A model generated the notes under the pieces. The model made no database searches, had not been told where the DNA came from, and saw only the letters and a program-made list of their open reading frames with translations. Below are positions 7,234-24,496 of a DNA stretch of 64,000 nt, one piece after another (position 1 is the first letter of the stretch; every line of letters starts with the position of its first letter). Source of the stretch: a bacterium (GTDB lineage Bacteria > UBA10199 > 2-02-FULL-50-16 > JAJFLM01). Location: the NCBI GenBank assembly GCA_965216315.1, contig CBDCFN010000016.1:352001-416000 (forward strand), read 5' to 3'. Position numbers and translations under genes: made by a program.

Positions 7234-7399
7234 GAGAGACTTTATGAGCTTCAAAACGAAATGGTTGCGAGAGAGAGCGGATTTACTCCGGTCGAACGAG
7301 CCGGTCGGGGGTTCGGGGGTGTTGGGCCAAGCACACACCCCCGTTTCGAATGATGGGTGGCATATCCTCACGAAGGCACTGATTACGGGGTACATGTAA
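7186..7399 (+). repeat. 48-bp direct duplication of the sctR 3' end (7186-7233 and 7352-7399) flanking a GC-rich hairpin element
   Basis: Both copies encode DGWHILTKALITGYM*; 5 differences, all silent (CTC/CTG, ACC/ACG, GGT/GGG, TAT/TAC, TAG/TAA). Confidence 0.95.
7244..7399 (+). CDS. 51-aa mini-ORF ending in a copy of the SctR C-terminus
   Basis: AGGAGA RBS at 7232-7237; MSFKTKWLRERADLLRSNEPVGGSGVLGQAHTPVSNDGWHILTKALITGYM*. Confidence 0.5.
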   Translation: MSFKTKWLRERADLLRSNEPVGGSGVLGQAHTPVSNDGWHILTKALITGYM

Positions 7400-7408
7400 G
7401 GAGTTTCG

Positions 7409-7675
7409 ATGGATGCCTATATAATCAGCATTTCGCGTCAAACTCTTTATCTGACCTTGATCCTCACCGCGGCGCCGGTGGGGGCCGCCTTGATCGTCGG
7501 TCTCGCCGTCAGCCTCCTGCAGGCGACGACACAGATCCAAGAGCAGACCCTGACCTTCGTCCCTAAGCTGGTCATCGTCTTCGTGCTGCTCTCGGTATTA
7601 GGACCGTGGTCGTTTTTTCAGGTGGTCGCCTTTATGAATAGCCTGATCGAGAACATCCCACAGGTGATTAAGTGA
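7409..7675 (+). CDS. sctS: Export gate SctS/FliQ
   Basis: VGLAVSLLQATTQIQEQTLTFVPKL signature. Confidence 0.95.
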   Translation: MDAYIISISRQTLYLTLILTAAPVGAALIVGLAVSLLQATTQIQEQTLTFVPKLVIVFVLLSVLGPWSFFQVVAFMNSLIENIPQVIK

Positions 7676-8552: not shown

Positions 8553-8579
8553 GCAACTTTGGGTCGCTCGAGGCGATAA
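8553..8579 (+). promoter_or_regulatory. Sigma28(FliA)-like promoter GCAACTTT-N11-GGCGATAA
   Basis: -10 is one mismatch from GCCGATAA with canonical 11-nt spacer; same variant -35 as at 10888. Confidence 0.55.
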
Positions 8580-8589
8580 GCGGGTCGTA

Positions 8590-10743
8590 ATGGCTTATTT
8601 TATGGCGGGGGGGATTGCCACGACTCAGCTTGCGTCGGCTGGTGTCCCTGCCCTGAATTCAGGAATTTTATCAGCCCAGTTGCTCAGCCAACCGGCGGTC
8701 TTCGGCGAAATGGCGCCCGGAGCCCCGTTGGCCCTGTCGCTGCAAAGCCCTTATTCCCTGCAACGAACCCAGGCCCGCGAGAATGCCGCGACCGACGCGA
8801 CCTTTCAGGCCGCCGTTCAATTGTTGGACGATATTCAGCGTGGCGTTGATCCCGCGGAGGGAACGGCCGCCGCGTCATTGGATCGCGCTCGTGCGGCGAC
8901 CTTTGTCAGCCGCCTCCAGCGCGAGATCGATCAGGCCTTAGCGCAGACCGCACTCGGTGACCTGGCGGAACCGCTCCGCCAAATAATGACGCAGCATCCG
9001 GAGTTGGCGACTGCCGACCTGGCGACCTGGCGGGAAAATGACTTAGGCCGTAACTTTATCGAGCGCGTCAAAAATCTCTATCGTGAGCAATATTTAGGTT
9101 TTAGCGCCTTTCGTGCAACGACGCAGCTTCCCGGGACGGAGCAGGTTGCCGCCTTGGAAAATGCGGTGCGGGCGATCTATGGCGACGCCGGCCAGGCGCT
9201 GCTCTCCGAGCTGGCGCAAGAAAATCTCAGTGAACTCTTACAACGCGAGAGCTTGGCCGAGCGGGTTTCGCCGGAGGTGTTAGCCAGGCTTTTCCCCGCG
9301 GGACAGCCGCCGTTGACCGAGCGGTACCAAAAAATGGGTCACATGGCCCTGTTTGCGCGCTTTGTCGTGACGCAGCGTCAGTTCATGGAATCCCTCGTCG
9401 GTTCCCCGGAGCGCGTCGAACTCTTTTGGACCTTGCGTGGCTTGGAACTAGAGATGTCGCGACGGGATGATTTCGAGTCGGATGCGTTCAAGACCTTGAT
9501 GCGGCGGGTCCAGATGCCGGACTTAAGCCCCGTTGACCGGAGCCGTTATTTCGCCCTCCAAGAGGCTGTGGCCAAGAGTGGGGCGAATCCGGATCCAGCC
9601 CTCCAGGCGCAAGTCACCGAAGCGCTCCATTATTTTTCTCAGCGGACCGGTGAAACCGATTTAGCAACGGATGCTGGCCAGCATTTTGCCTACCGGGATG
9701 TCGTGCAACAGGTGGCGCTCCTGGCGCTCCGCGTCGGCGTCTCGGCGGAGGACATCAGACGGGAGACCAGCGGACAGGGGACGGCCCCATCGAATGAGCC
9801 GGTGACGCTCCAGCAGATTTATGACGGCACCCAGGTCGTGACCCTTGACGCACTGCCACCGGAAATAAAGGACATCCTTCGCGCCACGGGCCAGTGGGAT
9901 CTCGTCAATCAGGCGACGCGGCGGGTCATCCTCATGCCGGAGATCGCCTCGACGGACTACGTCAAGATGCTGGTCGGCTCGGCACCGAGCGGCCGGGGCT
10001 ATTTTGCCGACGGAACCCTGGTGATCTCGACCGCCCCGGACGGGCTGCGCTCACCGGTCTGGCGCATTGCCGGGTTGATTGCCCATGAAGCGGCGCATCT
10101 GCGCTCTTTGAATGGGATTATGGACAACCCGCAAGAGCTGATGGGAATGACCTCGAATGTACCTCAAGAGCGGGAGGCCTATGCCTGGGAGTCGAAGTTT
10201 TATCGGAGCTTTCTCAGTCGCTTTGGATCCCGCCTCAATGACGCGGATCGCGCCGCCATTGAGCAAACCGTTTTCAATACCGAGTCCATCGTCTATGCGA
10301 CCAATCTGCTCTTGAGCCATTCATTAGAGGACCTGGAGCCGGGGCGTGGGCTGCAGGCCGATCTGGAAATGCGGCGGTATGGCGGGCTGACCGTCGGGCA
10401 GTTGGATATCAATAGTTATCCGGAGCGGTTGCGGGACTTGATCGGGAGGATTGAGTTTAGTGGGGTCGACGGCATCCATCTCAGTAATTTGCGTTCCCGG
10501 CTGCGGCGTCGGATCGAAGATCTCGAACGGGCGCTCCAGGCGTCGCTACGGTTTCAACGCGAAGAGTTGGAGGCGCTGCGTCGGCAGACCGGATCCGACG
10601 CGCTCAGTCCCGAGGCGATTGCCGCCTTTGAGCAGCAGTTGACCGAGATGCCGGACGGGATCCGTCGGAGCCTTGAGGCCTATCGGCGGCAGTTTGGGTT
10701 GTTGGGGCAGGATAACGGGCATGCCGCGGTCAAACTTACCTAA
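8590..10743 (+). CDS. Hypothetical helical protein with HExxH zinc-metalloprotease motif; candidate T3SS effector
   Basis: LIAHEAAHLR (HEAAH at 10084-10098) and downstream EREAY; no signal peptide seen; follows sctT. Confidence 0.55.
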   Translation: MAYFMAGGIATTQLASAGVPALNSGILSAQLLSQPAVFGEMAPGAPLALSLQSPYSLQRTQARENAATDATFQAAVQLLDDIQRGVDPAEGTAAASLDRARAATFVSRLQREIDQALAQTALGDLAEPLRQIMTQHPELATADLATWRENDLGRNFIERVKNLYREQYLGFSAFRATTQLPGTEQVAALENAVRAIYGDAGQALLSELAQENLSELLQRESLAERVSPEVLARLFPAGQPPLTERYQKMGHMALFARFVVTQRQFMESLVGSPERVELFWTLRGLELEMSRRDDFESDAFKTLMRRVQMPDLSPVDRSRYFALQEAVAKSGANPDPALQAQVTEALHYFSQRTGETDLATDAGQHFAYRDVVQQVALLALRVGVSAEDIRRETSGQGTAPSNEPVTLQQIYDGTQVVTLDALPPEIKDILRATGQWDLVNQATRRVILMPEIASTDYVKMLVGSAPSGRGYFADGTLVISTAPDGLRSPVWRIAGLIAHEAAHLRSLNGIMDNPQELMGMTSNVPQEREAYAWESKFYRSFLSRFGSRLNDADRAAIEQTVFNTESIVYATNLLLSHSLEDLEPGRGLQADLEMRRYGGLTVGQLDINSYPERLRDLIGRIEFSGVDGIHLSNLRSRLRRRIEDLERALQASLRFQREELEALRRQTGSDALSPEAIAAFEQQLTEMPDGIRRSLEAYRRQFGLLGQDNGHAAVKLT

Positions 10744-10887
10744 TATTCTTTAACTTGGCCGCAACTGGAGCCGAGCGATCAGCGAAGAATGAGCTGGCGT
10801 TGAGATGAATGCCGCGAAATTTTTCAACTATTTGAATTTATTGAATAAATTTCTTTCAACTATTGGGATGAATTTGCCAATAAGGCG

Positions 10888-10914
10888 GCAACTATTCGTC
10901 GATCGAGCCGATAA
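10888..10914 (+). promoter_or_regulatory. Sigma28-like promoter GCAACTAT-N11-GCCGATAA
   Basis: Perfect GCCGATAA -10 box, 23 nt upstream of ATG 10938. Confidence 0.65.
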
Positions 10915-10937
10915 TCTAGATTAGAGATTATTTTATT

Positions 10938-12413
10938 ATGGGCAGTTATAGCATTTCAATTAGCGGCGCGCATACCCAGACCCTGACCGGGTCGGTGGCC
11001 ATCACGCGGGATGGGAATTTTACCGCGACGGAGCATGGCGCGGCCAAAACCGCCGTCCGTCAGGCCCTCGTTGCGGCAGGCTATTTCGATGGCGGGGGCG
11101 GCCGCTGGTATAAAGATCTTAATGGCGATGGCAATTATACTGCCGATGAGCGCGTCAATATCAGCGTTTCCTTATCCGGCGGCAGCGGTGCGAATTCCAC
11201 CGAGTGGAGCGGCGGGATTGGGACCCTGATGGGGGGAAGTCCTCCGACGGCCATCCCGATGTCCGGGAGTGGCGATACCAACGGCGGCGGTGATACGAAT
11301 GGGACGAACAATGGCACCGGCAATGGCAGTGGCGGTCGGCGTGGGAGCGGAGGACGTACGAGCGGTGGCGGTGGGACGAGTCGCACGACGACTAGTGACC
11401 CCAGCACCTGGACCGGCTATCCGATGCGCATCCGCGTCAAAAAGTCTGATGGGACCTGGGGCGAGTGGCGCACGATCCCTCACGGCCAGGATAACAATTA
11501 TGACGCGAGTGATGCCGAAATCCGCCAGTTGCTCGGGGTTTTGGAAAACGATGATACCGGAGACATGAATGCCCAGGTTCAGGTCGAGTATCAACGCAAT
11601 GGCAGTTGGGGACATGCGGATTCCTTCGATCAATTAGGTCCCCTCTATACCCGGGCCGGGATGGTCCGCCCGGGGGCGACGTCGGGGATGGGCAACGCGA
11701 CGATCAGTTACCGGGATGGCTCGCGGACACGAACGGTGACGGTGCAGTACCGTCTCGATCCCAATTCTGAAGGGGATGTCAGTCACGCCGAGGCGACGCG
11801 CATTCAAGAAATTTTTCGCAACATTCCCGGTTATCAAAGCAGCTGGCGGATCACGCAGGTGCAAGCGGAGGGCAAGACCCTGAATGCCGGTGCTTGGGCG
11901 AGCCGCCTGAGCCCGGATTATCGCTCGCCCAACAGCTCCGGGACTCCCGACGATTTTCTCGATGATTCCTTGAATCGCGGTTTTCTGGCCCGTTTGAGTC
12001 GCAACCGGCAGAGTCGCCGGGCGGAACAGCGGCGTTTGACCGCCATGTTGAATAATCTCCTCAGAGGCGGCCGGCTGAACTGGCGGACCTTCTTAAGCTA
12101 CATCAATCTCAGTGCGATGCGGCGCGAGGCCGTCGTGAACGAGTCCTTGAGCTGGGCGGTGCAGAGCCTGTCCGAAATCGAGGCCCGCCAGGGTGAACTC
12201 AATACCGAATTGCGCGGGCTGAGTTCGTCGGACCGCAACCGCTATACCTCGAGCATGACGCGCATCAACAACGAGCTCAATGAGCTCTCCGGGCAGCGTA
12301 ATTCAATCATGAGCTTTGTCCGCGACTCCAAGTCGGTCTCTGATGAAGGGAAGGAACTCGCGAAGAGTCTCTACGCCGAGCTCCAGCAGGAAGAAATGTT
12401 GATGCGCTTCTAG
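10938..12413 (+). CDS. Putative T3SS-secreted protein, paralogue A1 (EF-hand-like loop, Gly-rich linker, C-terminal helical domain)
   Basis: Strong paralogy with 12685-14067 from STWTG.PMRIRVK onward; DLNGDGNYTADE loop. Confidence 0.6.
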   Translation: MGSYSISISGAHTQTLTGSVAITRDGNFTATEHGAAKTAVRQALVAAGYFDGGGGRWYKDLNGDGNYTADERVNISVSLSGGSGANSTEWSGGIGTLMGGSPPTAIPMSGSGDTNGGGDTNGTNNGTGNGSGGRRGSGGRTSGGGGTSRTTTSDPSTWTGYPMRIRVKKSDGTWGEWRTIPHGQDNNYDASDAEIRQLLGVLENDDTGDMNAQVQVEYQRNGSWGHADSFDQLGPLYTRAGMVRPGATSGMGNATISYRDGSRTRTVTVQYRLDPNSEGDVSHAEATRIQEIFRNIPGYQSSWRITQVQAEGKTLNAGAWASRLSPDYRSPNSSGTPDDFLDDSLNRGFLARLSRNRQSRRAEQRRLTAMLNNLLRGGRLNWRTFLSYINLSAMRREAVVNESLSWAVQSLSEIEARQGELNTELRGLSSSDRNRYTSSMTRINNELNELSGQRNSIMSFVRDSKSVSDEGKELAKSLYAELQQEEMLMRF

Positions 12414-12490
12414 GCAGTGCACGCTGTCCCCCGCAACTGGAACTAGAACCCCCACGAAAACACTATGTCGGAGAATTTTAAGCGGACATC

Positions 12491-12530
12491 TGGGGTCTGT
12501 AGACCTCAAATCCCGGTCCCCTGGACCCGA
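12491..12530. promoter_or_regulatory. Tandem 18-bp palindromic enhancer-like sites (TGGGGTCT-N2-AGACCTCA plus a weaker copy 22 bp downstream)
   Basis: About 110 and 90 bp upstream of the sigma54 box at 12601; motif recurs at 14124 and 25091. Confidence 0.55.
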
Positions 12531-12600
12531 TTTCGTTGATCCCGGGCCGCCGTTTTAATTGTAAGTATTTGAAATTATAAAGGAAATTATTTCCGCCCCT

Positions 12601-12616
12601 TGGCATGAAACTTGCT
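12601..12616 (+). promoter_or_regulatory. Sigma54 -24/-12 promoter TGGCAT-GAAAC-TTGCT
   Basis: Matches TGGCAC-N5-TTGCW; IHF-like site at 12562-12574 just upstream. Confidence 0.8.
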
Positions 12617-12684
12617 ACTTAATTGGGCGGAGACCAAGGGTCCGTGAGGACCATAACAGACGCTAGAATTTATTAGGAATAACG

Positions 12685-14067
12685 ATGGCAACGGCATCAT
12701 TTACCATAACCTATACGAAAAACGGCACTCAGCACACGGCCAATATCACCACGGGTGAACTCGATCGCAACGGTGACGGTCAGGTAACGGCTCGTGAAGT
12801 TGATGAGGCAGTCTCTGCGGCGATCCGCGACTACCGGGTTGATGGTAATCGGGTATTTAACTGCGCGGATAGTGCGACGGCGATTACTGGCCGTTCCGGC
12901 GTAACCATTGATAGTCGCAGTGATGTGACGCTTTCCAATTTGACCGGGCATACGAGTTTTACAATGCCGGCGGTGCTCAATCGAAGTTCTTTATCCGCAC
13001 CGGTCCGGACGAGCAACGCGAGCGATCACTCGACCTGGACCGGACGGCCGATGCGCATCCGCGTCAAGAACGCCGATGGTTCCTGGGGACCGTGGCACGA
13101 GATTCCGCACAGCATGGACACTAATTCTGCCGTGAGTAACGAGGAGTTAGCCCGGTTGCTTGGCACACTTCCCTCAAATGAAACCGGTAATATGGGTGCC
13201 GATGTCCAGATTCAGTACCAGAATTCGAGTGGGCAATGGCACCGTTCCAGCGTTCATAATGAGGACTTGGGCAATCTCTATCCCCGCGCCGGCGTGACCC
13301 CGCCGGGAACCGGTGATGGCATGGGCTGGGCGACTATTAAATATCGGGATGGTAATAATACCCGGACGGTTCGTGTCCAGTACCGCTTGGACCCGAATTC
13401 GCCCAACGACGTCAACCACACCGAGGCGACCCGCATTCGAGATGTTTTTCGCAATCTACCCGGTTACCAAAGCTCTTGGCGCATCACCGAGATCCAGGCC
13501 GAAGGCCAGACTTTGGATGCCGGTGGGTTCGCCAGTCGTCTGAGTGATGACTATGTCTCGCCGAATAATCCTAATAATCCGGATAACCCGGATGACCCGA
13601 ACAATCCGGTCAATGGGGCGATTACGCGTAACCTGACCGAGCGCTTGGGCCGGAGTCGTCGCAGCAGTAAGGCGCAGCAGCGGCAGATCACGATGATCCT
13701 GCAGAGTCTGCTTAGAGGCGGTAATCTAAATTGGCGGACCTTTTTGAGCTATATCAATATGAGTACGATGCGGCGTGAGGCCGTGATGAACGAGGCCCTG
13801 ACCTATGCGGTCCAGAGCCTGTCCGGTCTCGAACAGCGCCAGAGTGAGCTGAATACCGAATTGCGTGGCCTGAGCACGAGTGACCGGAACCGCTATACCT
13901 CGAGCATGACCCGCATCAACAACGAACTCAACGAGCTCTCCGGGCAGCGGACGGCGATCATGAACTTTGTCCGTGACTCCAAATCCGTCTCGGATGAGGG
14001 CAAGGAACTCGTCAAGAGCCTGATGGCCGAGCTGCAGCAGGAAGAAGCCCTGATGCGTTTCGCATAA
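12685..14067 (+). CDS. Putative T3SS-secreted protein, paralogue A2
   Basis: Paralogue of A1 with a different N-terminus; DRNGDGQVTARE loop; (N/D)xP repeat linker; TAGGA RBS. Confidence 0.6.
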   Translation: MATASFTITYTKNGTQHTANITTGELDRNGDGQVTAREVDEAVSAAIRDYRVDGNRVFNCADSATAITGRSGVTIDSRSDVTLSNLTGHTSFTMPAVLNRSSLSAPVRTSNASDHSTWTGRPMRIRVKNADGSWGPWHEIPHSMDTNSAVSNEELARLLGTLPSNETGNMGADVQIQYQNSSGQWHRSSVHNEDLGNLYPRAGVTPPGTGDGMGWATIKYRDGNNTRTVRVQYRLDPNSPNDVNHTEATRIRDVFRNLPGYQSSWRITEIQAEGQTLDAGGFASRLSDDYVSPNNPNNPDNPDDPNNPVNGAITRNLTERLGRSRRSSKAQQRQITMILQSLLRGGNLNWRTFLSYINMSTMRREAVMNEALTYAVQSLSGLEQRQSELNTELRGLSTSDRNRYTSSMTRINNELNELSGQRTAIMNFVRDSKSVSDEGKELVKSLMAELQQEEALMRFA

Positions 14068-14090
14068 TCTAAGTTATTGATATTAGGGAG

Positions 14091-14118
14091 AAAGGCGGCC
14101 TTCATGGCCGCCTTTTTT
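14091..14118 (+). terminator. Rho-independent terminator
   Basis: AAAGGCGGCC-TTCAT-GGCCGCCTTT followed by T run. Confidence 0.85.
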
Positions 14119-14123
14119 ATTGC

Positions 14124-14185
14124 TGGGGCCCTCAGCCCCCATATCCCCGCCTCCAGACCCCAGGGAGTGGGGTATTCAGGGCCTA
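14124..14185. promoter_or_regulatory. Phased enhancer-like sites TGGGGCCC-TC-AGCCCCCA, a half-site AGACCCCA, and TGGGGTAT-TC-AGGGCCTA
   Basis: Three copies about 21-23 bp apart, upstream of the sigma54 box at 14259. Confidence 0.5.
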
Positions 14186-14258
14186 ATTTTTTGGCTTCAA
14201 ATTGTATAATCCCCTGATTTTAGGTATCATTTACTTAGTGCCCCTCTCCGGCGGAGGT

Positions 14259-14274
14259 TGGCATGGGTCTTGCA
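14259..14274 (+). promoter_or_regulatory. Sigma54 promoter TGGCAT-GGGTC-TTGCA
   Basis: GG-N10-GC geometry; implies the ORF-track start at 14258 is wrong. Confidence 0.75.
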
Positions 14275-14296
14275 TCTTAAGTCCGCGAGGACCTCT

Positions 14297-16132
14297 ATGG
14301 ATTTATGTTTGTTTGATAACAGCGCGATCGTTCTTGTCGGGAAGCAGGCCGGACTCTTTGACGTGAGTCATCCGGGCAGTGTCGGTGCCCCAAGCGGTCC
14401 GCAGAGTTCAGTTCAGAACCAGAGTACCTCCAGCTCCGGCGAGGCCCCGCAGTACGAAGCCAAGGTCGAAACCCCGACTTTATTGAGTCCGGAAGAAGAA
14501 GCCGCACTGGCCGACCAGAATTTACGCATGAGCAACGCGAATGTTGACCCCAACAAAGCTGCGATCCAGAGCAATCTGCAGGAGAGTAAACTTATTCATA
14601 AAGAGCAGATCACCTGGTTGGAGCACGTCCTGGGTGCGGATGTCGCCAAGGCCCTGCGCAGTGCCAATAAAGATAGTCTTCGCAATATTTCTGATGTCGC
14701 CCGCATTGTTTATGAAGTGACCGGCGGCGATCTCAAGGCCGTTCAAGCCCTGTTGAATAAACTGCACGCGATCAAGTCATCACTGCCCCGCGAAGCCCGC
14801 GCCGATCTCGATGCAATTACGGGCCTCATTGGAGAGATCGAGACCCGAGCCGCAGCGGATGGATTGAAAATCAGCTCTAGTGCTTCCACGCACGATCAGT
14901 ACAAGGCCCGCTCGGCTGAACTGGAGCAGGTGATCACGAAGCTGCAAGACAAGCTGGCCACGCTGCTCCCCAAAGAGCTCGCCGCTCAGTTGAAGAGCCA
15001 AGGATTTTTAGGCGTCGGTGTGGCCAAGAAGGTCAGCGACGCGATTACCAAGAAATTTGATGCCCAGCTCAAGGAGCTGCGTGCCGAACTCAAGGCGGCC
15101 AAGGACGCCGGCAACAAAGAGCGGGTCCAGTTAATCAAGTCGAAAATCAGCGATGTCCAGGCCAACCAAAAGCAGGCCCTGCAGCAGGCCCGCATTCTCG
15201 GCAAGGTCCTGCAGGCCGGTGACCGGGCGCTTAGCTCCGAGAATCTCGAGCAGATCAATCAATTTTTTAATCTTATTGATGCCCCGCGCGGTGGTGCGCA
15301 GGAAGGTATCCAGGCAGCGGTTCTCAATCTTGATGAGGTCCGTGACCTCGATCAACTCGAAGGCATTGTCAATGTCGTGTTGAACGCCGAAGAGACCGCC
15401 CAGGCCGGGACGCAGTCGACCGCGCATTCCGGTGACGCCGGAGCGCCGCAAGAGTCGTCTTCGGGCGCCGGCATTCAGTCTGCAGGCGGTACCGGTAACG
15501 ATGAGCCGGTCGACGAAGCCGAGATGGCCAAAAAAGTTTTAATGGAAGAAGGCCAGGACATCGAAGGCCAGGGCAGCGGTGCCGGGATTCAATCCGAAGG
15601 CGCGACTGCCGAAGAGCATGCCGAGATCCAGGGTGACTGGATGGGCCTGACGCAGGCCGAGATGGGCATGAAGATCGCCAGTTCGAGCGTCGTGATGGGG
15701 ATTACCTCGTCGTATTACCGCGGCCGCTCGGACGAGCGCAAACTCAAGGGCATGATCGACAAGTTGATCGCCGCGATTTCACGCGGTGATCTCGATGCGA
15801 TCAGTACCGCTCTGATCCTGATCGGACGCCGCTCGCAGGAGAGCCTACGCAAGGTCTCCCTGACGATGATCAAGGCGATGAAATATTATGAAGAACAGCA
15901 GTCGGGCCTCAATGATGAGCTGGAATCCTTGACCCGTGATATGGGTCCGACCTTTGGTGCGGATATGCAGGCGATTAACAACAAGATGAATATGTACTCG
16001 AGTAATCGCCAGGCCCTGATGTCGATGTTCCGTGATACCAAGGCGCAGGTCGATACGATTGAGAATTTAACCAAGTCGATACTGGATATCGAAGGCCGGC
16101 AGAAACGCCAGCTGGCGCAATTCCAGGCCTAA
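14297..16132 (+). CDS. Putative T3SS-secreted coiled-coil protein, paralogue B1
   Basis: GAGGA RBS; N-terminal motif shared with 16233; C-terminal domain related to B2 (MNxYSSNRQA) and more distantly to A1/A2. Confidence 0.6.
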   Translation: MDLCLFDNSAIVLVGKQAGLFDVSHPGSVGAPSGPQSSVQNQSTSSSGEAPQYEAKVETPTLLSPEEEAALADQNLRMSNANVDPNKAAIQSNLQESKLIHKEQITWLEHVLGADVAKALRSANKDSLRNISDVARIVYEVTGGDLKAVQALLNKLHAIKSSLPREARADLDAITGLIGEIETRAAADGLKISSSASTHDQYKARSAELEQVITKLQDKLATLLPKELAAQLKSQGFLGVGVAKKVSDAITKKFDAQLKELRAELKAAKDAGNKERVQLIKSKISDVQANQKQALQQARILGKVLQAGDRALSSENLEQINQFFNLIDAPRGGAQEGIQAAVLNLDEVRDLDQLEGIVNVVLNAEETAQAGTQSTAHSGDAGAPQESSSGAGIQSAGGTGNDEPVDEAEMAKKVLMEEGQDIEGQGSGAGIQSEGATAEEHAEIQGDWMGLTQAEMGMKIASSSVVMGITSSYYRGRSDERKLKGMIDKLIAAISRGDLDAISTALILIGRRSQESLRKVSLTMIKAMKYYEEQQSGLNDELESLTRDMGPTFGADMQAINNKMNMYSSNRQALMSMFRDTKAQVDTIENLTKSILDIEGRQKRQLAQFQA

Positions 16133-16179
16133 ACGGCCGGAATCTGAATGTAGGGGCGCTGCTCGCCGCGCCCGGAAAG

Positions 16180-16208
16180 GCAACTGGAAGAGGCTTTTGA
16201 GCCGATAA
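16180..16208 (+). promoter_or_regulatory. Sigma28-like promoter GCAACTGG-N13-GCCGATAA
   Basis: Perfect -10 box 24 nt before ATG 16233; spacer 2 nt longer than at the other two sites. Confidence 0.5.
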
Positions 16209-16232
16209 AATATTGTTGGAACTGTAAATACG

Positions 16233-18038
16233 ATGGAACTTTATCTTTCACATAGCGACTTACCGATCGTCCTGACCAGGCCGGGGCTGTTTGAGGTCCC
16301 TGTCGCAACGGTGGGTTCAGTCCAAACGGGTGGGACGCAGCCGACGGCGCCTGATGCAACGGTTGCGCAAGGAACGACGATCCCGACGGACGGGACGAAT
16401 GCCGGTCAATTGACGGTTCGCCGCGACACGGCCTGGCCGGAAGTTGGCAACGGTTCGGGACAGCTAGGTGTTCGTTATCGAGATGCTAGTGGTGCATGGC
16501 ACGACCTGCCAGGCTCTGCCATCACGCGGGGGGGCACCGACAATAGAGACCTGACGATTACCTTTCCGGAAACAGCTCGTACCGGGAACGTCGCTTACGA
16601 AATTTTTACAGGTTCGGGTGGATCCCGCACGTATCTCGCCGATGGAACGGCTCCCTTTGCGACGCGGACGGCGACAGATGGCGACGGGACGGCGCGTCCC
16701 GGGCAGACTCAGAGCCCTCCGACGAATGAGGCGCTTGGCTCTGTCGGTGGCGGTACGGGTGAAGACACACGGACCGCACTCAATACCTATGCGACCAATT
16801 TTGAGACCACGACAGGTCCCAACGCGATGCGTTCAATTTTTAATCTCGGGAGCGGTGTCGAATATTGGTCGAGTGGGACGACTTTAAATCCCGCTAATTT
16901 TGATCAAGCCGTGACGGACATGACTGCAGGTCGGGATCGGGTTCAAGCCCTGCGTGATACCGCGGTGTCCGATTTGGGCACGGCGACGACGGAGCTACAG
17001 CGTTTGGAAAATCTCCCGGCTGGCGAAAGACCTGCTGACTATGATACCCAATTATCAGCTGCTCGGACACGGGTTGAGACTTTGCGCACGCAGGTCCGGC
17101 AATATAGCGATTCTTTTGACGCGCATGTGCGTGGTCTGGGCCGAGCCTCTTCTTTCCGTACTATTTATGACGAATTCAGAACCGCACGGACGGCATTGGA
17201 TGGTGGTGATCCGACGCAAATGAGAGATTTTAGACAGCGCTATGATCGTCGTACGGTTGCGTCGTTAGGCAATGGGACCGTGATGGCAGGCATTACAAGC
17301 GGTAATTACACTGGCGAGCAGATCAATGCGGCGCGTACCGAAGTCAATCGGCCGGCCGGCGGTGGCAACGGCGGTGCCGGGACCCAGAGCGCCGGTTTCA
17401 CTAATACCGTCCACGGTATTAACCAAGGCATTAACGCCGTTGCAGGGACTGTCCACAGTGCGGCGAACGTGACGGATGCCCTCGGGCGTCTCACCCGTTC
17501 GTCAGCCAGCATTCCGCCGAACAGCGGCTTTGGCTATGGCGGTTTCGGTGGCGGCTATGGTTTCGGGGGTGGCTTTGGTTTCGGCGGTTTCGGACCGATG
17601 GGAATGATGGGACCGGTGGGTCAGCAAGACCAGCGTGAAGAATCTCGCAAGATCACGATGTTGTTGCAGATGTTGATGCATGCCATCCAGGCGGGGAATA
17701 CGGATGCGATCGGTACGGCCCTGACCTTCATCGCGATGCGCGGTAAAAAGACCTTGTTACAGGCGGCGGCACGCACCGTGCGGGCGATGGAATCTTTTGA
17801 GCGGCAGCAGCAGACGATCAATAATCAGATGGCCAACCTCAATGCCGAGGGCAATCGGAATTATCAGTCGCAGATGATGACCCTGACCAACGACATGAAC
17901 GTCTATTCTTCGAATCGTCAGGCCATCGTCAACTTCCTGCGGGACGTCAAAGGGATGGTCGATGAGCTCGATAATATGGATAAGAGCTGGCGCGATGTGG
18001 CGATCAGACAGCAGACGTCGTTGACTCGATTTGCCTAA
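16233..18038 (+). CDS. Putative T3SS-secreted protein, paralogue B2, with Gly/aromatic stretch
   Basis: Shared N- and C-terminal motifs with B1; GFGYGGFGGGYGFGGGFGFGGFG at 17526-17594. Confidence 0.6.
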   Translation: MELYLSHSDLPIVLTRPGLFEVPVATVGSVQTGGTQPTAPDATVAQGTTIPTDGTNAGQLTVRRDTAWPEVGNGSGQLGVRYRDASGAWHDLPGSAITRGGTDNRDLTITFPETARTGNVAYEIFTGSGGSRTYLADGTAPFATRTATDGDGTARPGQTQSPPTNEALGSVGGGTGEDTRTALNTYATNFETTTGPNAMRSIFNLGSGVEYWSSGTTLNPANFDQAVTDMTAGRDRVQALRDTAVSDLGTATTELQRLENLPAGERPADYDTQLSAARTRVETLRTQVRQYSDSFDAHVRGLGRASSFRTIYDEFRTARTALDGGDPTQMRDFRQRYDRRTVASLGNGTVMAGITSGNYTGEQINAARTEVNRPAGGGNGGAGTQSAGFTNTVHGINQGINAVAGTVHSAANVTDALGRLTRSSASIPPNSGFGYGGFGGGYGFGGGFGFGGFGPMGMMGPVGQQDQREESRKITMLLQMLMHAIQAGNTDAIGTALTFIAMRGKKTLLQAAARTVRAMESFERQQQTINNQMANLNAEGNRNYQSQMMTLTNDMNVYSSNRQAIVNFLRDVKGMVDELDNMDKSWRDVAIRQQTSLTRFA

Positions 18039-18066
18039 TTTTTGACCGAAAAAATGGAATTTTTAG

Positions 18067-18096
18067 AGGGTGGACCGGGTGTCCGCCCTTTTTTTT
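18067..18096 (+). terminator. Rho-independent terminator
   Basis: AGGGTGGAC-CGGGT-GTCCGCCCT plus T run. Confidence 0.75.
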
Positions 18097-18165
18097 GGCA
18101 AAAAACCCAAGGATTATTAGAACTTGTACGGCTCAGACGAAAATGTTATTTTATATCCAGAGGTT

Positions 18166-18810
18166 ATGGATTCGATGGCAAATCCGAAGGATACCGGTGT
18201 ACCCGAGAATCCCGCACCTGAAGGGGCAGAGGCCGGCCCGGAGGAGGTCTCCTTTGATGAGCTCGCCAATCAACTCGAGGCGGAGCTCAAAAAGGTGCCC
18301 CCCCAAAAGCTGGCAGAGGCCCAGAAGCAGGTAGCGGATTTTCTGGGGGGCGACCTGAAATGGGCCGATCTCGCCGATTGGACCCCCGAGAAGCTGCATG
18401 AGACCGCCAAGGAGGGCTACGCCCAATACGAGGCCGCCCAGTACGACCAGGCGGAGATCATTTTTAAGGGGCTGACCGTGCTGGATCCGGACAATTTCTA
18501 CTATCACCAGATGCTCGGGGCGTGTTTTCAGCAACAGAAGAAATTCGCCGAATCCATCGTCGAGTATTCAATCGCGGTCGATCTCAAGCCCGACGATATC
18601 ACCTCTTTTACCAACCGGGGCGAGGTCTACTATGAGCTCAAGCTCTGGGATCTGGCCGAACGGGATTTTAATGAGGCGATCCGCCTCGATACGACCGGAG
18701 GGGACCGCTGGGCCAATCGCTCCCGGCTGTTGTTGAAAAAGCTGGCGGGACTGCGTAGTACGCAACCCGTTGGGGCCTCTGAGCCGAAAATAGAAGCAGG
18801 AGATAAGTAA
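18166..18810 (+). CDS. TPR protein, SycD/LcrH (class II T3SS chaperone)-like
   Basis: GYAQYEAAQYDQAEIIFKGLTVLDP, LGACFQQQKKFAES; three TPRs. Start 18166 or 18175. Confidence 0.75.
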   Translation: MDSMANPKDTGVPENPAPEGAEAGPEEVSFDELANQLEAELKKVPPQKLAEAQKQVADFLGGDLKWADLADWTPEKLHETAKEGYAQYEAAQYDQAEIIFKGLTVLDPDNFYYHQMLGACFQQQKKFAESIVEYSIAVDLKPDDITSFTNRGEVYYELKLWDLAERDFNEAIRLDTTGGDRWANRSRLLLKKLAGLRSTQPVGASEPKIEAGDK

Positions 18811-18813
18811 TTT

Positions 18814-19710
18814 ATGGCCATTGATATGCCAGGCATGCAGACCGGCGCTTCCGATGTGAGGACGCAGACGCCCCCTGTCGTGACGGAGGGGCTCCTTAGC
18901 GGTCAGGTCGCCCAGGAGATCCGTCAGCTGCTCAAGACGGACGTGACGGCCACCGATATGCTGGCCTATCTCTCGCAGCAAGCGACGCGCCTGGCCGATC
19001 TCCAGTCACCGCCTTCGATCAAGGCGATGTCCGCGGACATCCCGCCGCCGCCGGAAGATAGCCCGCTTTGGAATGAATCGGATCCGTCGATGCAGGTCTC
19101 CGATGTGGAGCTGCAGGCCCTTGATGAGTTTACCCAACAGATGGCGGGCATTGCCTCGGAAGGGGGCGATGCGAATGACGCCTGGCTCAACGGGGCGGAT
19201 AGCATCCTCGATAAACTCAAAGAACAATACGGGGATCCGCAGATGGCCATCGGTGACGGCGAGATGACCGGTGGGATCTGGGACTGGATGATGACCGGTG
19301 AAGTCAGTCGTGAGGCCGCTGAGGTCGATGACAGATGGCGTACCCTGATTCAGTCGTTGCTGGCGGATCCCAAGGCCAGTGCGGTTGATGTGCTGATGGC
19401 GATGGGCCAATATTTAACGGAGAAAAACGGGAAGGGACTGACCGAGGCCTTCAAGCTGTTTCACAATAAAGAAGTCGCTTATCAAGAGAATATGGCGGAG
19501 CTGGGCCTGGGCGAAAAGGCCCTCAATCCGACGGAGATGATGCAGGCGCAGGAAGAGATGCGCCAGTTTGGGATGGACTCCCAGATGGGGATGCAGGTGA
19601 TCCAGCAGTTCCGTCAGGACATCGACCGGACGCAGAACTACGTGAAGTCTTCCGCGACGGCGGTTCATCAGACGCTCCGAGCCATGATCCAAAACTACGC
19701 GTTACGATAA
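18814..19710 (+). CDS. Putative T3SS-secreted filament/tip-like helical protein
   Basis: Lies between two TPR chaperones; Met/Gln-rich C-terminal helix ending AVHQTLRAMIQNY, reminiscent of EspA/Bsp22-type termini. Confidence 0.45.
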   Translation: MAIDMPGMQTGASDVRTQTPPVVTEGLLSGQVAQEIRQLLKTDVTATDMLAYLSQQATRLADLQSPPSIKAMSADIPPPPEDSPLWNESDPSMQVSDVELQALDEFTQQMAGIASEGGDANDAWLNGADSILDKLKEQYGDPQMAIGDGEMTGGIWDWMMTGEVSREAAEVDDRWRTLIQSLLADPKASAVDVLMAMGQYLTEKNGKGLTEAFKLFHNKEVAYQENMAELGLGEKALNPTEMMQAQEEMRQFGMDSQMGMQVIQQFRQDIDRTQNYVKSSATAVHQTLRAMIQNYALR

Positions 19711-19761: not shown

Positions 19762-20364
19762 ATGGATGAGACGTATACGAGGGGTCAAAAGACGACAACG
19801 CGGGAACAGGACCCTAATCCTGACCGGGTAAAACATCTCGCCGAACTCCTTCATCGATTTGCCACCAATAAAATCAGTCTGGCCGATATCGCGCGCCTGC
19901 CGCGCAAAGAATTGCGACGCATGACCGAGATCGGTCATACCAAGCTCAAATACGGTCGTTACAAAGAGGCCTTAGAGATCTTTTCGATGCTCGCCAAGGT
20001 CGACCACAAAAACTATTATTATCGTTCCGCTCTCGGTGGTGTGTATCAGAAGATGAAAAAATGGATCGAGTCCCTGGCGAGTTATACGATTGCCCTCAAA
20101 CTCAATAAGAATGATACCGCCAGCCTCGTCAATCGCGGGGAGATTTTTTTGCGTCATGACAAGTTCAAGCGGGCCGCGGAAGATTTTCGTCGCGCCATCC
20201 TGACGGACAAGGCGGGAAAAAACCTATGGGCGAATCGGGCCCGCTCTTTGGTGATTGCGCTCAAGCGCAGCGTGGAAGCCAAGAAAAATGTGAAGAAAGC
20301 CACCCGGCCCGCCTTGCCGGCATCACGTAAGCCGGTGCCGCGGAGTGCGGGAAGAAGAAGGTAA
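19762..20364 (+). CDS. Second SycD/LcrH-like TPR protein (basic)
   Basis: GRYKEALEIFSMLAKVDHKNYYY, NRGE, and WANRAR shared with the first TPR protein. Confidence 0.7.
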   Translation: MDETYTRGQKTTTREQDPNPDRVKHLAELLHRFATNKISLADIARLPRKELRRMTEIGHTKLKYGRYKEALEIFSMLAKVDHKNYYYRSALGGVYQKMKKWIESLASYTIALKLNKNDTASLVNRGEIFLRHDKFKRAAEDFRRAILTDKAGKNLWANRARSLVIALKRSVEAKKNVKKATRPALPASRKPVPRSAGRRR

Positions 20365-20421: not shown

Positions 20422-21819
20422 TTAATCGTTGTCGTTGAGGATCCCATATTTCTTGAGCAGATTGCGGATGTGCTTCCGGTCGATTCCAGCCTCGCGGGCG
20501 GTCTTGGAGATGTTGTAATTGTTGCGCCGGAGCAGGGCGGCCAGATAGTCCCGTTCAAAGGATTCGACGATCTTTTGCTTGGCCTCTTTGAAGGGCAGGC
20601 CGAGATCGACCTCCGGGAGTTTTTCAGTGACCTCGTCTTCTTCACGTTCCAACTCTTGAAAGACATAGGCTAAGTCCTGACCTTTGACGGAATCCCCGTT
20701 GACTAAGGGGACGACGCGCGAGAGGACGTTGACGAGTTCCCGGACGTTTCCCGGCCATTGATAACGAGTGAGCATCTTGAGGGCGTCATCTTCCACGCGC
20801 GTGACATGAAGGCTGCCATCGGGATTGCGATTGAAATCCCCCTCGGACAAGAAACGTTCGACCAGCATTTCGATGTCATCAGGGCGTTCGCGCAAGGGCG
20901 GAATGAAAATTTTGACGACGGAGAGCCGATAATAGAGATCCTCGCGAAAATTGCTATCAGCGACTTCTTTGCGCAGATTGCGATTGGTCGCGCAGAGCAC
21001 GCGGACATCAATGCTCACCGTATCGTTAGAACCGACCTTTTTGATTTGGCGTTGCTCTAAGGCGCGCAGCAGTTTCGGTTGCAGGTCCATGGAGAGTTCG
21101 CCGATTTCATCGAGAAAGATCGTCCCTCCAGTGGCTTCCTCAAAGGCCCCTTTGCGGGTCGACACGGCCCCGGTAAATGAACCTTTCATATGACCAAAGA
21201 GTTCCGATTCGATCAAATTTTCGGCCACGGCCGAACAATCGAAGACGACAAAGGGTTTATCTTTGCGGGGACTGTTGTCATGGATGGAGCGGGCAACGAC
21301 TTCTTTACCGACACCGGTTTCCCCTTCGATAATAACCGTCGCATTGGTAGGCGAGATCCGACTGAGGAGGCCGAAGATCTGGCGCATGCGCCGTGACCGG
21401 CCGATTAAACGCCCGAATTCGGTTTTTTCCGAGGGCTCCACCTGAACCTTTTCATCGAAAGCAATAAATTCAATGCGGGAGTTGCCGATGCGAATAATAT
21501 CGCCGGGGGCGAGATAGGCTTCTTTGACCCGCGTTTCGTTAATAAACGTGCCGTTAGTGCTCTCGAGATCTCTTAATAGAAAACTGTCTTCTTCCGGTAC
21601 GATTTCAAAGTGAGTCCGCGAGACCGCTCGGTCCTCGATGGCGAGTCCATTGTCCTCTTTTTTGCCGATCGTGATACGGTTGTCTTTAAGGTCCATCTTG
21701 CGGCCTTTGCTGGTCCCTTCAACGACTACGAGCTGGCATTTACGGAGACTGACGACATCCTTGTTTTCGTCGAGTCGTAAGAGTTGGGTATCACTCTCTA
21801 AGATTTCATTTTGCGCCAT
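20422..21819 (-). CDS. FHA-domain sigma54-dependent enhancer-binding protein (Fis-type HTH)
   Basis: FHA (VSRTH, STNGT), [39 protein letters not shown]-terminal HTH. Confidence 0.93.
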
Positions 21820-21838: not shown

Positions 21839-24496
21839 TTAATTTTTTTGTAGCCGAACGTTATAACGTTTGTTTTTTTCGCGGCTCATATCGACGGATG
21901 TGGACCAAGGACGGAACCCGTTCATCTCCACGCGCAAGCTGTGTGAACGGTTGCGTGGGACCTTGCGAATCGTTACGGGAGTTCGGGCCCCGATGCGATT
22001 GCCATCAAAAATAACATCGGCTCGTGGGGGGATGGTTTCGACCTTGATCTCTCCAAACATGCCTTCTAATTTGATCGTACCTAAACTTTTCTTTTTGCCC
22101 CCCTGGAGGCTTACGCTTGATGAATGCTGCATAAATCCATCCTTACGCAGCATTACCGAGGCGCTTCCCGGACGGAGTCCGCTCACGGTGATCGGTGTCT
22201 TTCCTTTATACTCGGAGTTGACATAGACCTCGGCGCCGGAAGGGCTTGATCTAATCGACAGACTGGCCGGACGTCCTGAAGCGACGGGTTTGGGTGCCGG
22301 CGGCGGCGTATAGCGTGGCTCGGGTTTGGGCTCCGGCGGCGGAGTATATCTTGGTTCAGGCTTGGGTTTGGGCGTGGGCTTGGCCTCGCGAATCGGCTTT
22401 TCGACCGGCTTCGGTTTGGGTTTGGGCTCAGGTATTGCTTTGCCCTTGTCTAATGAGGCGATGAGCTTGTCGCCGGATTCTTGTTCGACCTTGACGCTCT
22501 TGGTGAAGACCTCATAGCCGCCTTTTTCCAGCTTGATCGTGTAAAACTTATCCAGCTCAAGGTTGTCGAGTTGGGTCGGGGTCACGCGCCCCGTATCCTT
22601 GCCATTTAAGAAGACCTTGGCCGCCCCCGGCTTGGAACGAACCACTAAAGAACCGAGCTTGGGAGGCGGAGGGGGCTCGGGTTTCTCTTCGAGCTTCGGA
22701 AGCTCAGGAAGTTTAGTCAAGGTAGCGCGGATATTGACCGGATTGAAATTGGCGATAGGAACCGTGCTGGCCCAATCACCGTAACCTTCCTTCTTTAAGT
22801 GAATCGCATAATCTTTTTTGATCTCAAGCTCGCCGATATCGGTTGGCGTGACCTTGCCCGTCTCTTTGCCGTTAAGCAGGATCGCGGCGCCGGGCGGATC
22901 CGATGAGATCTTGAGCATTCCTTCCGCGAGGGCCTGAAGGCTGACATGAACCTTGACGGGTTCTTCCGTCACGAGCGCGACGGTTTTTTCGTAGGGCTTA
23001 TAGTGTTCTCTTTCAATTGAGACTTTGTAGTCATCGCCAAGTGATAAGCGGCTTAAGGTCGCCGGTGTTGTTTTGCCGATGTTTTTTCCATTGAGCAGTA
23101 TCGTTGAATTAGAGGGTTCCGAGCTGACAATGATTGAGCCGTAATCAGCGAGGGGCGGCTTGGGTTCGGGCGGTTCGACGGGCTTTACGGGTTTGTCCGG
23201 GACTGTCGGTCCGACGAGTTCTTCCCAGAGCCCGCTGACTTTGTCGCCGATACCGAATTGGGACCAACTCAGATACCCGGCCGCGCCCAGTGCGAGGAAG
23301 ACGGCCAATATCATCCAGGGTCGCCTTCTTTTCGCCTGCTTGCGGACGATGGTGGGTTCGGGGACCGGAATGGCGCCGGCTTGGGTGGATTCATCGGTGA
23401 CGGATGATTCTTCATCAATTCCGATGTCAGTGCCCGTTCCGGCGTCTTTAATGCCGGCTTCCGTTCCCTGGCCTTCGTCCCCAACGAGGCTTTCACCGGT
23501 GCTGGCCTTGATCAGCAGTGAACGTGTTTTGTCGTCGACATGAGGTCCGCTCTCCTCGGTTGCTTTCATTTCTTTGTCAAAATAGTTTCGGACAAGAGAG
23601 GCGAGGTTGCGCGGTGAAAAATCGATGTACGAGGAATAAAGATATTTAGTGAGTTCGAGATGAAGGTCACCCGCCGTGGCGTAACGGTCCTTGGCATTGA
23701 AGGAAAGGGCCTTGGCGAGTATGGCTTTCAGCGGCCCGGGGATATCATCCGGCAGGTCCATTGTGTTGACGCGGGTCGTGCGGATTTTATTCAATACTTC
23801 AAATTGAGTCTCTCCGGTGTAGAATTTTTCGCCGGTCAACATTTCATAGAGAACGAGGCCTGCCGAGTAGATATCAGTCCGCCCATCGAGCGGTTTGCCG
23901 AGGGCTTGTTCGGGTGACATGTAAGCGATTTTGCCCTTCAGGACGCCGGCCATCGTGTGAGAGACGTTGAGTGCCGCTTTGGCGATTCCGAAGTCGACAA
24001 TCTTGACCTCGCCTTCATAGGAAATGAGGATATTTTGCGGGTTGATATCGCGGTGGACAATATTAAGCTGCTGGCCGTCGGGGCTCGATTTGCGATGGGC
24101 ATAATCAAGGCCCTTACACATTTCACTGACAGCATACACGGCAAGGTCTTCCGGCATCTTGCCCTCGTCGGAGGTCACCCGCCGGATAAGCTCGCGCAGA
24201 TTGGTGCCATGAATGAATTCCATAGAGATGTAGTAGTCATCACCGACTTTACCGAGGTCATAGACTTGAACGATATTGGCGTGCGAAAGCAGAACCGTTA
24301 GCTTGGCTTCATCAACCAGCATCGTGATGAAGTCTTTGTCGGCAGCGCAATGAGGGAGTATTCGTTTGATGGCGAGTAGCTTTTCAAAGCCGTCGACACC
24401 ATAAGTTTTGGCCTTGTAGATCTCGGCCATGCCGCCCACGGCAAGTTTGTCGATCAGCAGATAGCGCCCAAACTGTTTCGGTTCAAAATCGCTCAT
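21839..24496 (-). CDS. Membrane Hanks-type Ser/Thr kinase with multiple PEGA domains
   Basis: GGMAEIY, AIK, HRDINPQN, DFG, YMSPEQ; one TM helix; repeated S.P.GA.V.LNG...G.TP PEGA units; duplicated PEPRYTPPP. Confidence 0.93.
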   Translation of the reverse strand: MSDFEPKQFGRYLLIDKLAVGGMAEIYKAKTYGVDGFEKLLAIKRILPHCAADKDFITMLVDEAKLTVLLSHANIVQVYDLGKVGDDYYISMEFIHGTNLRELIRRVTSDEGKMPEDLAVYAVSEMCKGLDYAHRKSSPDGQQLNIVHRDINPQNILISYEGEVKIVDFGIAKAALNVSHTMAGVLKGKIAYMSPEQALGKPLDGRTDIYSAGLVLYEMLTGEKFYTGETQFEVLNKIRTTRVNTMDLPDDIPGPLKAILAKALSFNAKDRYATAGDLHLELTKYLYSSYIDFSPRNLASLVRNYFDKEMKATEESGPHVDDKTRSLLIKASTGESLVGDEGQGTEAGIKDAGTGTDIGIDEESSVTDESTQAGAIPVPEPTIVRKQAKRRRPWMILAVFLALGAAGYLSWSQFGIGDKVSGLWEELVGPTVPDKPVKPVEPPEPKPPLADYGSIIVSSEPSNSTILLNGKNIGKTTPATLSRLSLGDDYKVSIEREHYKPYEKTVALVTEEPVKVHVSLQALAEGMLKISSDPPGAAILLNGKETGKVTPTDIGELEIKKDYAIHLKKEGYGDWASTVPIANFNPVNIRATLTKLPELPKLEEKPEPPPPPKLGSLVVRSKPGAAKVFLNGKDTGRVTPTQLDNLELDKFYTIKLEKGGYEVFTKSVKVEQESGDKLIASLDKGKAIPEPKPKPKPVEKPIREAKPTPKPKPEPRYTPPPEPKPEPRYTPPPAPKPVASGRPASLSIRSSPSGAEVYVNSEYKGKTPITVSGLRPGSASVMLRKDGFMQHSSSVSLQGGKKKSLGTIKLEGMFGEIKVETIPPRADVIFDGNRIGARTPVTIRKVPRNRSHSLRVEMNGFRPWSTSVDMSREKNKRYNVRLQKN

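Follow-up and report, generated by a model that had tools for sequence, protein, structure and literature searches.

The window analysed here is a stretch of 64,000 nucleotides (nt), positions 352,001 to 416,000 of the forward strand of contig CBDCFN010000016.1 (GenBank assembly GCA_965216315.1), from a bacterium of the UBA10199 lineage, and it lies at the end of a type III secretion (T3SS) gene cluster. An earlier note on this DNA had described two pairs of paralogous genes, A1/A2 and B1/B2, and a putative protease gene (here the HExxH gene), and had read their sigma28-like and sigma54 promoters as a switch between two alternative subunit sets. Our analysis indicates that the boxes are probably two tiers of one cascade, running from sigma54 to a FliA-like sigma factor encoded in the cluster, and that the products would be made in sequence rather than as alternative sets. 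The gene for the FliA-like sigma factor carries this reading: it has a conserved sigma54 promoter and the same candidate enhancer as A2 and B1, which would place the two promoter classes in series.

Two promoter classes in the window and across the genome

The genome under study (G000; 2.96 Mb, 98.3% complete) was compared with two relatives of its family, G002 and G003, which as kin are not independent samples, and more widely with uncultured Deltaproteobacteria, some of them UBA10199. All five promoter boxes of the earlier note were found where it had placed them, on the + strand; when the intergenic sequence around each box was shuffled 20,000 times, the box reappeared in a fraction of at most 0.0005. 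The note had missed a sixth box, before open reading frame (ORF) C, as well as palindromes upstream of A2 and B1, broken boxes of the other type before A1 and A2, and the lack of a terminator between B1 and B2. The six boxes are as follows.

8553..8579, + strand: sigma28-like promoter of the HExxH gene, spacer of 13 nt (N13); it ends 10 nt before the ATG, from which a near-leaderless mRNA is predicted
10888..10914, + strand: sigma28-like promoter of A1, N13, with the maximal matrix score
12600..12616, + strand: sigma54 promoter of A2, box present and shuffle-tested
14258..14274, + strand: sigma54 promoter of B1, conserved in G002 and, across a contig end, in G003
16180..16208, + strand: sigma28-like promoter of B2, spacer of 15 nt (N15), with the same box in G002 and G003
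18762..18790, + strand: sigma28-like promoter before ORF C, N15, the sixth box

The sigma28-like box before the HExxH gene reads GCAACT-N13-GGCGATAA, and the sigma54 boxes before A2 and B1 read TGGCA-N6-TTGCW. Genome-wide, GCAACT-Nn-G.CGAWAA gave 16 matches at n = 13 and 13 matches at n = 15, with 0 to 2 at any other spacer from 5 to 30. The TAAAG version of the motif had no spacer peak (0 to 5 matches), which bears out the earlier view that the −35 element is a variant, GCAACT and not TAAAGT. The sigma54 pattern occurred 110 times at the proper spacing versus 6 to 22 times at other spacers. We describe the sigma28-like class as RCAACW-N13/N15-GYCGATAA. A matrix seeded on the motif hits returned 103 N13 sites scoring ≥16, 84 of them intergenic, against 8 to 28 at unrelated spacers; these counts are partly circular. 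Across the phylum, the exact N13 pattern was present in 89 of 90 genomes and the N15 pattern in 50 of 51, with 0 to 2 for reversed controls.

Conservation before orthologous genes, which the earlier note had proposed as a check, held in part. The arrangement of a sigma54 box before B1 and an N15 box before B2 was present in all three family genomes, and the box of the HExxH gene scored 18.4 in G002 and weakly (11.1) in G003. The ORF C box was not found before C orthologues in the relatives, and among the three genomes the split of the A pair was confined to G000.

At about 28 of 68 N13 sites genome-wide, the box ends 0 to 11 nt 5' of an in-frame ATG, implying leaderless or near-leaderless mRNAs at such sites. 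At least 14 N13 boxes on the minus strand of G000 C16:2163444-2201489 head a tandem array of large genes of no assigned function.

A sigma54 promoter and a candidate enhancer before the sigma gene

By sequence, the genome encodes five sigma70-type factors (RpoD, one RpoH-like, two of extracytoplasmic function [ECF] size and one FliA/WhiG-like) and one sigma54; both families presupposed by the earlier promoter assignment are present. The FliA-like sigma gene is located inside the T3SS cluster and ends about 600 bp before the window start, and a sigma54 box stands about 40 nt 5' of it (C16:350530). Among the 39 loci scored (9 of 48 were skipped as truncated), this box scored ≥11 in 32, compared to none on the opposite strand and 1% in shuffles; by eye, GG-N10-GC was seen in 38 of the 39.

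Alignment of the A2 and B1 upstream regions revealed a common palindrome. A longer form, TGGGGTCT-N3-AGACCCCA, failed, with five genome matches and none near a sigma54 site. A shorter form, TGGGG-N8-CCCCA, was therefore looked for in the 200 bp that precede the box at each sigma-gene locus. With ≤1 mismatch it was found in 27 of 38 loci (mean of shuffles, 0.1), while control spacings of 6, 7, and 9, which overlap it via G/C runs, gave 7 to 10 and other spacings 0 to 2; the exact form was present in 9 loci versus 0 to 1 at other spacings. Within the genome, 14 of 237 sigma54-like sites have the enhancer, among them those of sigma, A2, and B1, and it was not found before A1, B2, C, or the HExxH gene. 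The B1 enhancer has an exact copy at −131 in G002 and 2-mismatch copies in G003.

12491..12508, + strand: TGGGG-N8-CCCCA with 1 mismatch, candidate enhancer of A2, 109 nt 5' of its sigma54 box; no counterpart before A1
14124..14141, + strand: exact TGGGG-N8-CCCCA, candidate enhancer of B1, 134 nt 5' of its sigma54 box
20422..21819, − strand: FHA-domain sigma54 activator (profile match), candidate enhancer reader
21839..24496, − strand: Ser/Thr kinase with PEGA repeats, directly upstream of the FHA activator

Of 24 family loci, 14 have an orthologue of the FHA activator beside the end of the cluster; these proteins show 65 to 88% identity and a near-invariant helix-turn-helix. This cluster-linked protein is the natural candidate for reading TGGGG-N8-CCCCA, and the Ser/Thr kinase possibly provides its input signal. 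From sigma to sctT, a box of either kind is rare (mostly 0 to 2 loci per gene; sctS, 5 of 30). N15 boxes were found before the o183 position in 20 of 24 loci and in the interval between sctJ and sigma in 17 of 32.

The last of these counts bears on a circuit with two inputs in place of a timed cascade, in which the FliA-like sigma would sustain itself from the N15 promoter upstream of its gene, and sigma54 plus activator would give an independent boost to sigma, A2, and B1. Dual promoters before genes of the A/B family in G003 and G061 and the absence of a FlgM match (below) are also consistent with such a circuit. However, a loop that drives itself must first be started, and conservation is wider for the sigma54 box and enhancer immediately 5' of sigma (box in 38 of 39 loci by eye) than for the upstream N15 box. 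We consider this circuit unlikely.

Three further observations concern these elements. Eleven other sigma54 sites have TGGGG-N8-CCCCA, mostly before genes of no assigned function, and form a candidate early substrate set. In 29 aligned loci, an ORF of 100 to 143 aa, fast evolving and with a low-complexity N-terminus, directly precedes sigma (L008:15011-15370; G000 C16:350010-350369); by position it is an anti-sigma candidate. In loci L033, L034, L035, and L043, an opposite-strand N13 box just upstream of sigma points away from the sigma gene, possibly as the promoter of an antisense or small RNA.

Promoter sharing in the A and B pairs

The following features of the A pair were identified.

10938..12413, + strand: A1, 491 aa, variable N-terminus with a DxNGDG motif and the shared C-terminal helical hairpin
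12685..14067, + strand: A2, 460 aa, 61% identical to A1 over 376 aa
10863..10879, + strand: broken sigma54 box 5' of A1; its −24 element has a C>G change, and one base is missing between GG and GC
12433..12460, + strand: distal, weakly scoring remnant of a sigma28-like box (N14; 11.0, near the 99th percentile of the null), with a homologous stretch before A1
12562..12574, no strand: IHF-like site, 1 mismatch to what we take to be the IHF consensus
12630..12656, + strand: decayed sigma28-like box before A2 in the register of the A1 box, 13-nt spacer kept, score −2.6
14091..14118, + strand: strong intrinsic terminator 3' of A2; the single A gene of G003 has it too, and it was not seen in G002

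A1 and A2 group together (support 99/75) inside a family-specific A clade, and they differ in their N-termini. A single A gene was found in each of the regions fetched from G002 and G003. The upstream regions of A1 and A2 are homologous (0 of 300 shuffles reach the score), and the broken sigma54 box before A1, which contig X1 record 2 covers without differences, aligns with the intact A2 box and the G003 box. The G003 A gene carries an enhancer, a sigma54 box (14.4), and a sigma28 box (12.7) together, which matches the expected ancestor of the pair. Most likely, A1 and A2 derive from a recent duplication of a dual-promoter gene, after which A1 would have lost the enhancer and broken its sigma54 box and A2 would have lost its sigma28 box, the decayed copy being presumably dead.

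The B pair and ORF C comprise these features.

14297..16132, + strand: B1, 611 aa from the ATG downstream of the promoter, with the shared C-terminal hairpin
16150..16173, no strand: dispersed repeat hairpin, 44 pattern copies in the genome, without a U tract
16233..18038, + strand: B2, 601 aa, with the shared C-terminal hairpin
18065..18096, + strand: strong intrinsic terminator after B2, conserved in G003
18814..19710, + strand: ORF C (298 aa), a fifth, distantly related hairpin protein

As a paralogous pair, B1 and B2 qualify through a 133-aa C-terminal domain at 35% identity and not through the rest of the proteins; each has its own orthologues, and an N-terminal likeness noted by eye was not significant (E 0.14). 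The terminators placed after A2 and B2 in the earlier note were confirmed as strong, the former by a custom scan after a generic terminator scan had missed it. No terminator was found between B1 and B2 in any of the three family genomes; the hairpin at 16150 was rejected as one, being a 44-copy repeat with no U tract. B2 is thus reachable from both promoters and would belong to both tiers; one paralogue per sigma factor holds for A1/A2 in this genome. In the proposed scheme, the B arrangement would be older than the A split. In other families with two adjacent members of the hairpin family, the second gene was without its own box in 11 of 11 genomes, and the first had an N15, a sigma54, both, or no assignable box, depending on the genome. 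These data suggest that promoter type is evolutionarily mobile in this family and that coexpression is the rule.

The proposal of the earlier note, that A2 and B1 versus A1, B2, and the protease are alternative subunit sets used under different conditions, has in its favor that in this genome A1, A2, B1, and B2 carry one intact box type apiece, that the two A proteins differ at their N-termini, and that terminators separate the units. Against it are the sigma54 promoter and enhancer on the sigma28-like gene itself, the lack of a terminator between B1 and B2, the single A genes of G002 and G003, and the one promoter for two genes in the other families; in addition, the A1 and HExxH boxes are N13 but that of B2 is N15, so the proposed set mixes two subclasses. 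We regard alternative sets as quite unlikely. Flagellar-type logic, which the earlier note had also invoked, is retained in the cascade, and different assembly stages are its likely meaning.

The interval 18065-18124 places the conserved terminator directly 5' of the first chaperone gene, which is without a box of either class.

The FliA-like sigma factor and the variant box

Orthologues of the cluster sigma were found in 88 of 90 phylum genomes and flagellin in 11 of 90; several flagellated members have a second, weaker FliA-like match. Its closest relatives of solved structure are WhiG and FliA, and its best NCBIfam match is TIGR02479 (E 1.2e-38; 133 bits versus a cut-off of 189.6). The sigma28 of Pseudomonas aeruginosa recognizes the GC of the extended −10 through R97 and touches the −35 element with S224 and Q228 (PMC12784957). 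By an alignment with a numbering offset of 5, deduced from three residues, the cluster sigma retains the counterparts of R97 and S224 and carries R in place of Q228, next to a W; these residues do not vary among 28 sequences. Of the region 2.4/3.0 residues that read GCCGATAA, the match to D66 is nearly invariant as well, and the canonical TAAAG-type region 4.2 is replaced by the helix SKSWTSRLH. Kept −10-reading residues and a changed −35 helix fit RCAACW-N13/N15-GYCGATAA, and we infer that the FliA-like sigma would read these promoters. The search for a fliA/flgM pair suggested in the earlier note yielded this FliA-like factor, and FlgM (PF04316) gave no match at E ≤ 1.

The two spacings raise the further possibility of three promoter classes, in which each spacing has its own reader, for example an ECF sigma or the FliA-like sigma aided by a cofactor; this would be compatible with the cascade. 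Spacing is sharply bimodal with a trough at 14, and spacer G+C is 0.46 for N13 versus 0.57 for N15. N13 targets have charge-poor N-termini (44 of 77, versus 497 of 2,432 for all ORFs), and N15 boxes predominate in the cluster. The −35 and −10 elements are nevertheless identical in the two classes. Moreover, neither G000 ECF sigma was found with these queries in 11 of 30 genomes ≥97% complete, and all 11 have abundant exact matches at both spacings (5 to 46 N13 and 6 to 20 N15), which disfavors the ECF sigmas as box readers. Separate readers are in our view very unlikely. Phylum-wide, N13 spacers are often rich in A/T tracts and N15 spacers in G/C runs, suggesting that DNA shape may compensate for the difference in spacing.

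Chance matches or an assembly artefact have a negligible probability, given the spacer peaks, the phylum-wide motif counts, and the shuffle tests, and contigs of two public runs (one study, possibly the source) that span the A1, A2, and B1 promoter regions with none of the differences listed for them inside the boxes.

A nonflagellar secretion cluster

Of the cluster genes, sctV, sctJ, and small genes lie upstream of the window; FliG-like, sctL, N, O, P, Q, fliN, fliO, and sctRST genes come next, and sctU is encoded elsewhere in the genome. An export gate, an ATPase, and SctJ are present, as in a nonflagellar T3SS, and SctV scores above the nonflagellar cut-off and below that for FlhA. Searches of the genome found no flagellin or rod domains and no Flagellin_N match, in agreement with the absence of rod and filament genes that the earlier note had envisaged. 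A secretin search gave one strong match, in an operon like that of a type II secretion system, and one weak match, neither in the T3SS cluster. A short ORF at window positions 7186-7409 is a duplicated sctR tail.

Three small genes, o117, o183, and TPR147, stand 5' of sctJ (L008:12006-13460; G000 C16:347005-348459). TPR147 is a weak match to CdsG/SctY, and o183, which has the conserved N15 promoter, is without a Pfam match. In known systems, a needle subunit gene lies next to its two chaperones; the order here resembles that arrangement, and the system may not be needle-less.

The hairpin family, the adjacent chaperone-like genes, and the HExxH gene

A C-terminal domain of roughly 135 aa is common to A1, A2, B1, B2, and C. 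Its model is a helical hairpin (predicted local distance difference test, 84), and it has 322 representatives at E up to 0.001. Adjacent genes and the HExxH gene are as follows.

18124..18810, + strand: SycD/LcrH-like TPR chaperone (E 2.9e-21, below the curated cut-off)
19762..20364, + strand: second SycD/LcrH-like TPR chaperone (E 2.5e-19, below the curated cut-off)
8590..10743, + strand: HExxH gene, a 717-aa ORF with one HEAAH motif (putative protease) and orthologues in G002 and G003

The order of the two LcrH/SycD-like genes next to the hairpin family is conserved, and these neighbors point to late secretion substrates. Similarity to needle proteins is weak: needle_F matches 6 of 49 members (best E 0.0023), and needle chains gave E values of 0.25 to 0.95. 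No flagellin family is among the 25 Pfam families listed for the 49 members, and Pfam and NCBIfam have no family for the five ORFs. Fold searches with the hairpin gave no Foldseek match at E ≤ 0.001; VIA matches with Z up to 11.6 were set aside as unrelated generic coiled coils in the range for helical bundles, and an Atlas search of the B2 C-terminus gave no usable match. Among at least 150 listed profile matches, the 10 that were looked up had hypothetical names or none. With low confidence, we suggest that the hairpin proteins are filament or tip-like subunits with variable outer domains. The 717-aa ORF, whose HEAAH motif we take to be an HExxH motif, had no Pfam or NCBIfam match, and one search returned just itself.

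A remote sixth copy of the hairpin (G000 C16:1437033-1438475) has a sigma54-like box, no enhancer, and an orthologue in G003. In loci L072, L074, L076, L078, L080, and L081, family members and unrelated inserts 3' of sctT begin with an M-[ED]-[LF]-W-G-F-E-like peptide, a possible export signal.

A proposed two-tier cascade

Reading from the observed motifs, spacing, conservation, gene content, and missing terminator to sigma and activator binding, transcription, timing, and protein role, we propose the following scheme. In the first tier, a sigma54 activator, probably the cluster-linked FHA activator, would bind TGGGG-N8-CCCCA about 100 to 180 bp upstream of sigma54 promoters, and this would switch on the FliA-like sigma gene together with the apparatus genes that follow it as far as sctT, as well as A2 and B1, the last with read-through into B2. 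In the second tier, the FliA-like sigma would transcribe RCAACW-N13/N15-GYCGATAA promoters, namely those of A1, B2, C, and the HExxH gene, of small genes in the cluster, and of some 100 genes scattered elsewhere. The A pair would result from the duplication of a gene with both promoters, one being kept per copy. The products are most likely late secretion substrates used together, such as filament or translocon-like subunits with a common C-terminal hairpin.

Several observations weigh against this scheme. The enhancer was first noticed in the A2 and B1 promoters themselves, and with ≤1 mismatch it precedes just 6 of 14 sigma54-type promoters of the hairpin family. The genome has 17 full sigma54 activators, one of them cluster-linked, and a different activator stands right beside sigma in four relatives. 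An N15 promoter two genes upstream of sigma could read into it, so that sigma might promote its own expression and blur the tiers; a further N15 match precedes sctV and falls within the ORF ahead of it. Regarding the A pair, the support for grouping A1 with A2 is below the starred level, the sigma28 remnant before A2 is by itself not distinguishable from chance, the G002 A upstream region has a sigma28 box only and does not align with that of A1 or A2 (z 1.7 and −0.5), and two weak hairpins leave read-through from A1 to A2 possible. As for the proteins, no transmembrane segments were found (maximum 19-residue hydropathy: median, 1.15; >1.6 in 1 of 48 members), which argues against pore-forming translocators (SctE/SctB), and what we take to be the chaperone-binding motif is not enriched in the family (4 versus 2.5 expected).

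A wider reading, doubtful when all its parts are taken jointly, is that a phylum-wide injectisome-like machine kept the flagellar transcription program after flagellum loss, including an exported anti-sigma. The activator and sigma54 would build the base and the first filament subunits, A2, B1, and B2; a small anti-sigma encoded 5' of the sigma gene would be exported at completion; and the freed FliA paralogue would then turn on the distal subunits and some 100 substrates. On this view, the hairpin proteins would form a new family of flagellin-like polymers whose outer domains can be exchanged.

Relation to known systems and significance

HrpL of Pseudomonas syringae is an ECF sigma factor, and Chlamydia is a T3SS bacterium without a flagellum. 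Cascades from sigma54 to an alternative sigma, and paralogues split between sigma factors, are known elsewhere. What is new here is a FliA-like gene in a T3SS cluster with its own sigma54 box and palindromic enhancer, in 32 of 39 and 27 of 38 loci, respectively. Our literature search found nothing on T3SS regulation in this lineage; most subscription papers lay outside the search, and a prior description is possible.

In Vibrio cholerae, fliA and basal genes are sigma54 class II genes, and the flagellins are split between sigma54 (flaA) and sigma28 (flaB to flaE) (PMC6504787). The present system resembles that polar flagellum in having a sigma54 tier with sigma and apparatus genes and paralogues divided between sigmas; unlike it, flagellin and rod genes were not found, SctV scores as nonflagellar, the −35 is altered, there are two spacings, and FlgM has no match. 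Campylobacter jejuni flaA (sigma28) and flaB (sigma54) are tandem paralogues with one sigma each, like A1 and A2 (PMC5126078), whereas here the proteins are something other than flagellins, other genomes of the family do not show the A split, and B1 and B2 are distant paralogues joined by read-through. In P. syringae, a cluster-linked activator (HrpRS) and sigma54 lead to an alternative sigma (HrpL) that serves the T3SS and scattered genes through one box (PMC8228185); by contrast, the second sigma here is FliA-like, an FHA-domain protein is the candidate activator, and sigma54 would act directly on the apparatus genes and on part of the substrates.

Bdellovibrio FliA in attack phase has, as here, a FliA-type box and a large nonflagellar regulon (92 of 140 promoters), but with a canonical TTAAG −35 and a flagellar FliA in place of a T3SS-embedded paralogue with RCAACW (PMC3627812). 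In Chlamydia, sigma28 and sigma54 are both used for late genes, but chromatin immunoprecipitation gave two targets per sigma and both sigma genes are reported to be transcribed by sigma66, with no sigma54-to-sigma28 cascade (PMC12282069, PMC7482065). The T3SS*/'Myxo' system of Myxococcus is likewise a deltaproteobacterial nonflagellar T3SS with LcrH-like chaperones and no linked secretin, whereas the passages concerned mention no sigma factor in its cluster (PMC3459982, PMC10433427).

Nonflagellar T3SSs are thought, in one of these sources, to descend from the flagellum (PMC3459982). If true, a FliA paralogue under sigma54 control on a T3SS would be a flagellar control circuit that survived the change from flagellum to T3SS. 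The two motifs would also allow genes in an uncultured phylum to be assigned, from sequence alone, to an early or a late class of secretion, and A1/A2 would be a tidy natural example of a dual promoter divided between duplicates.

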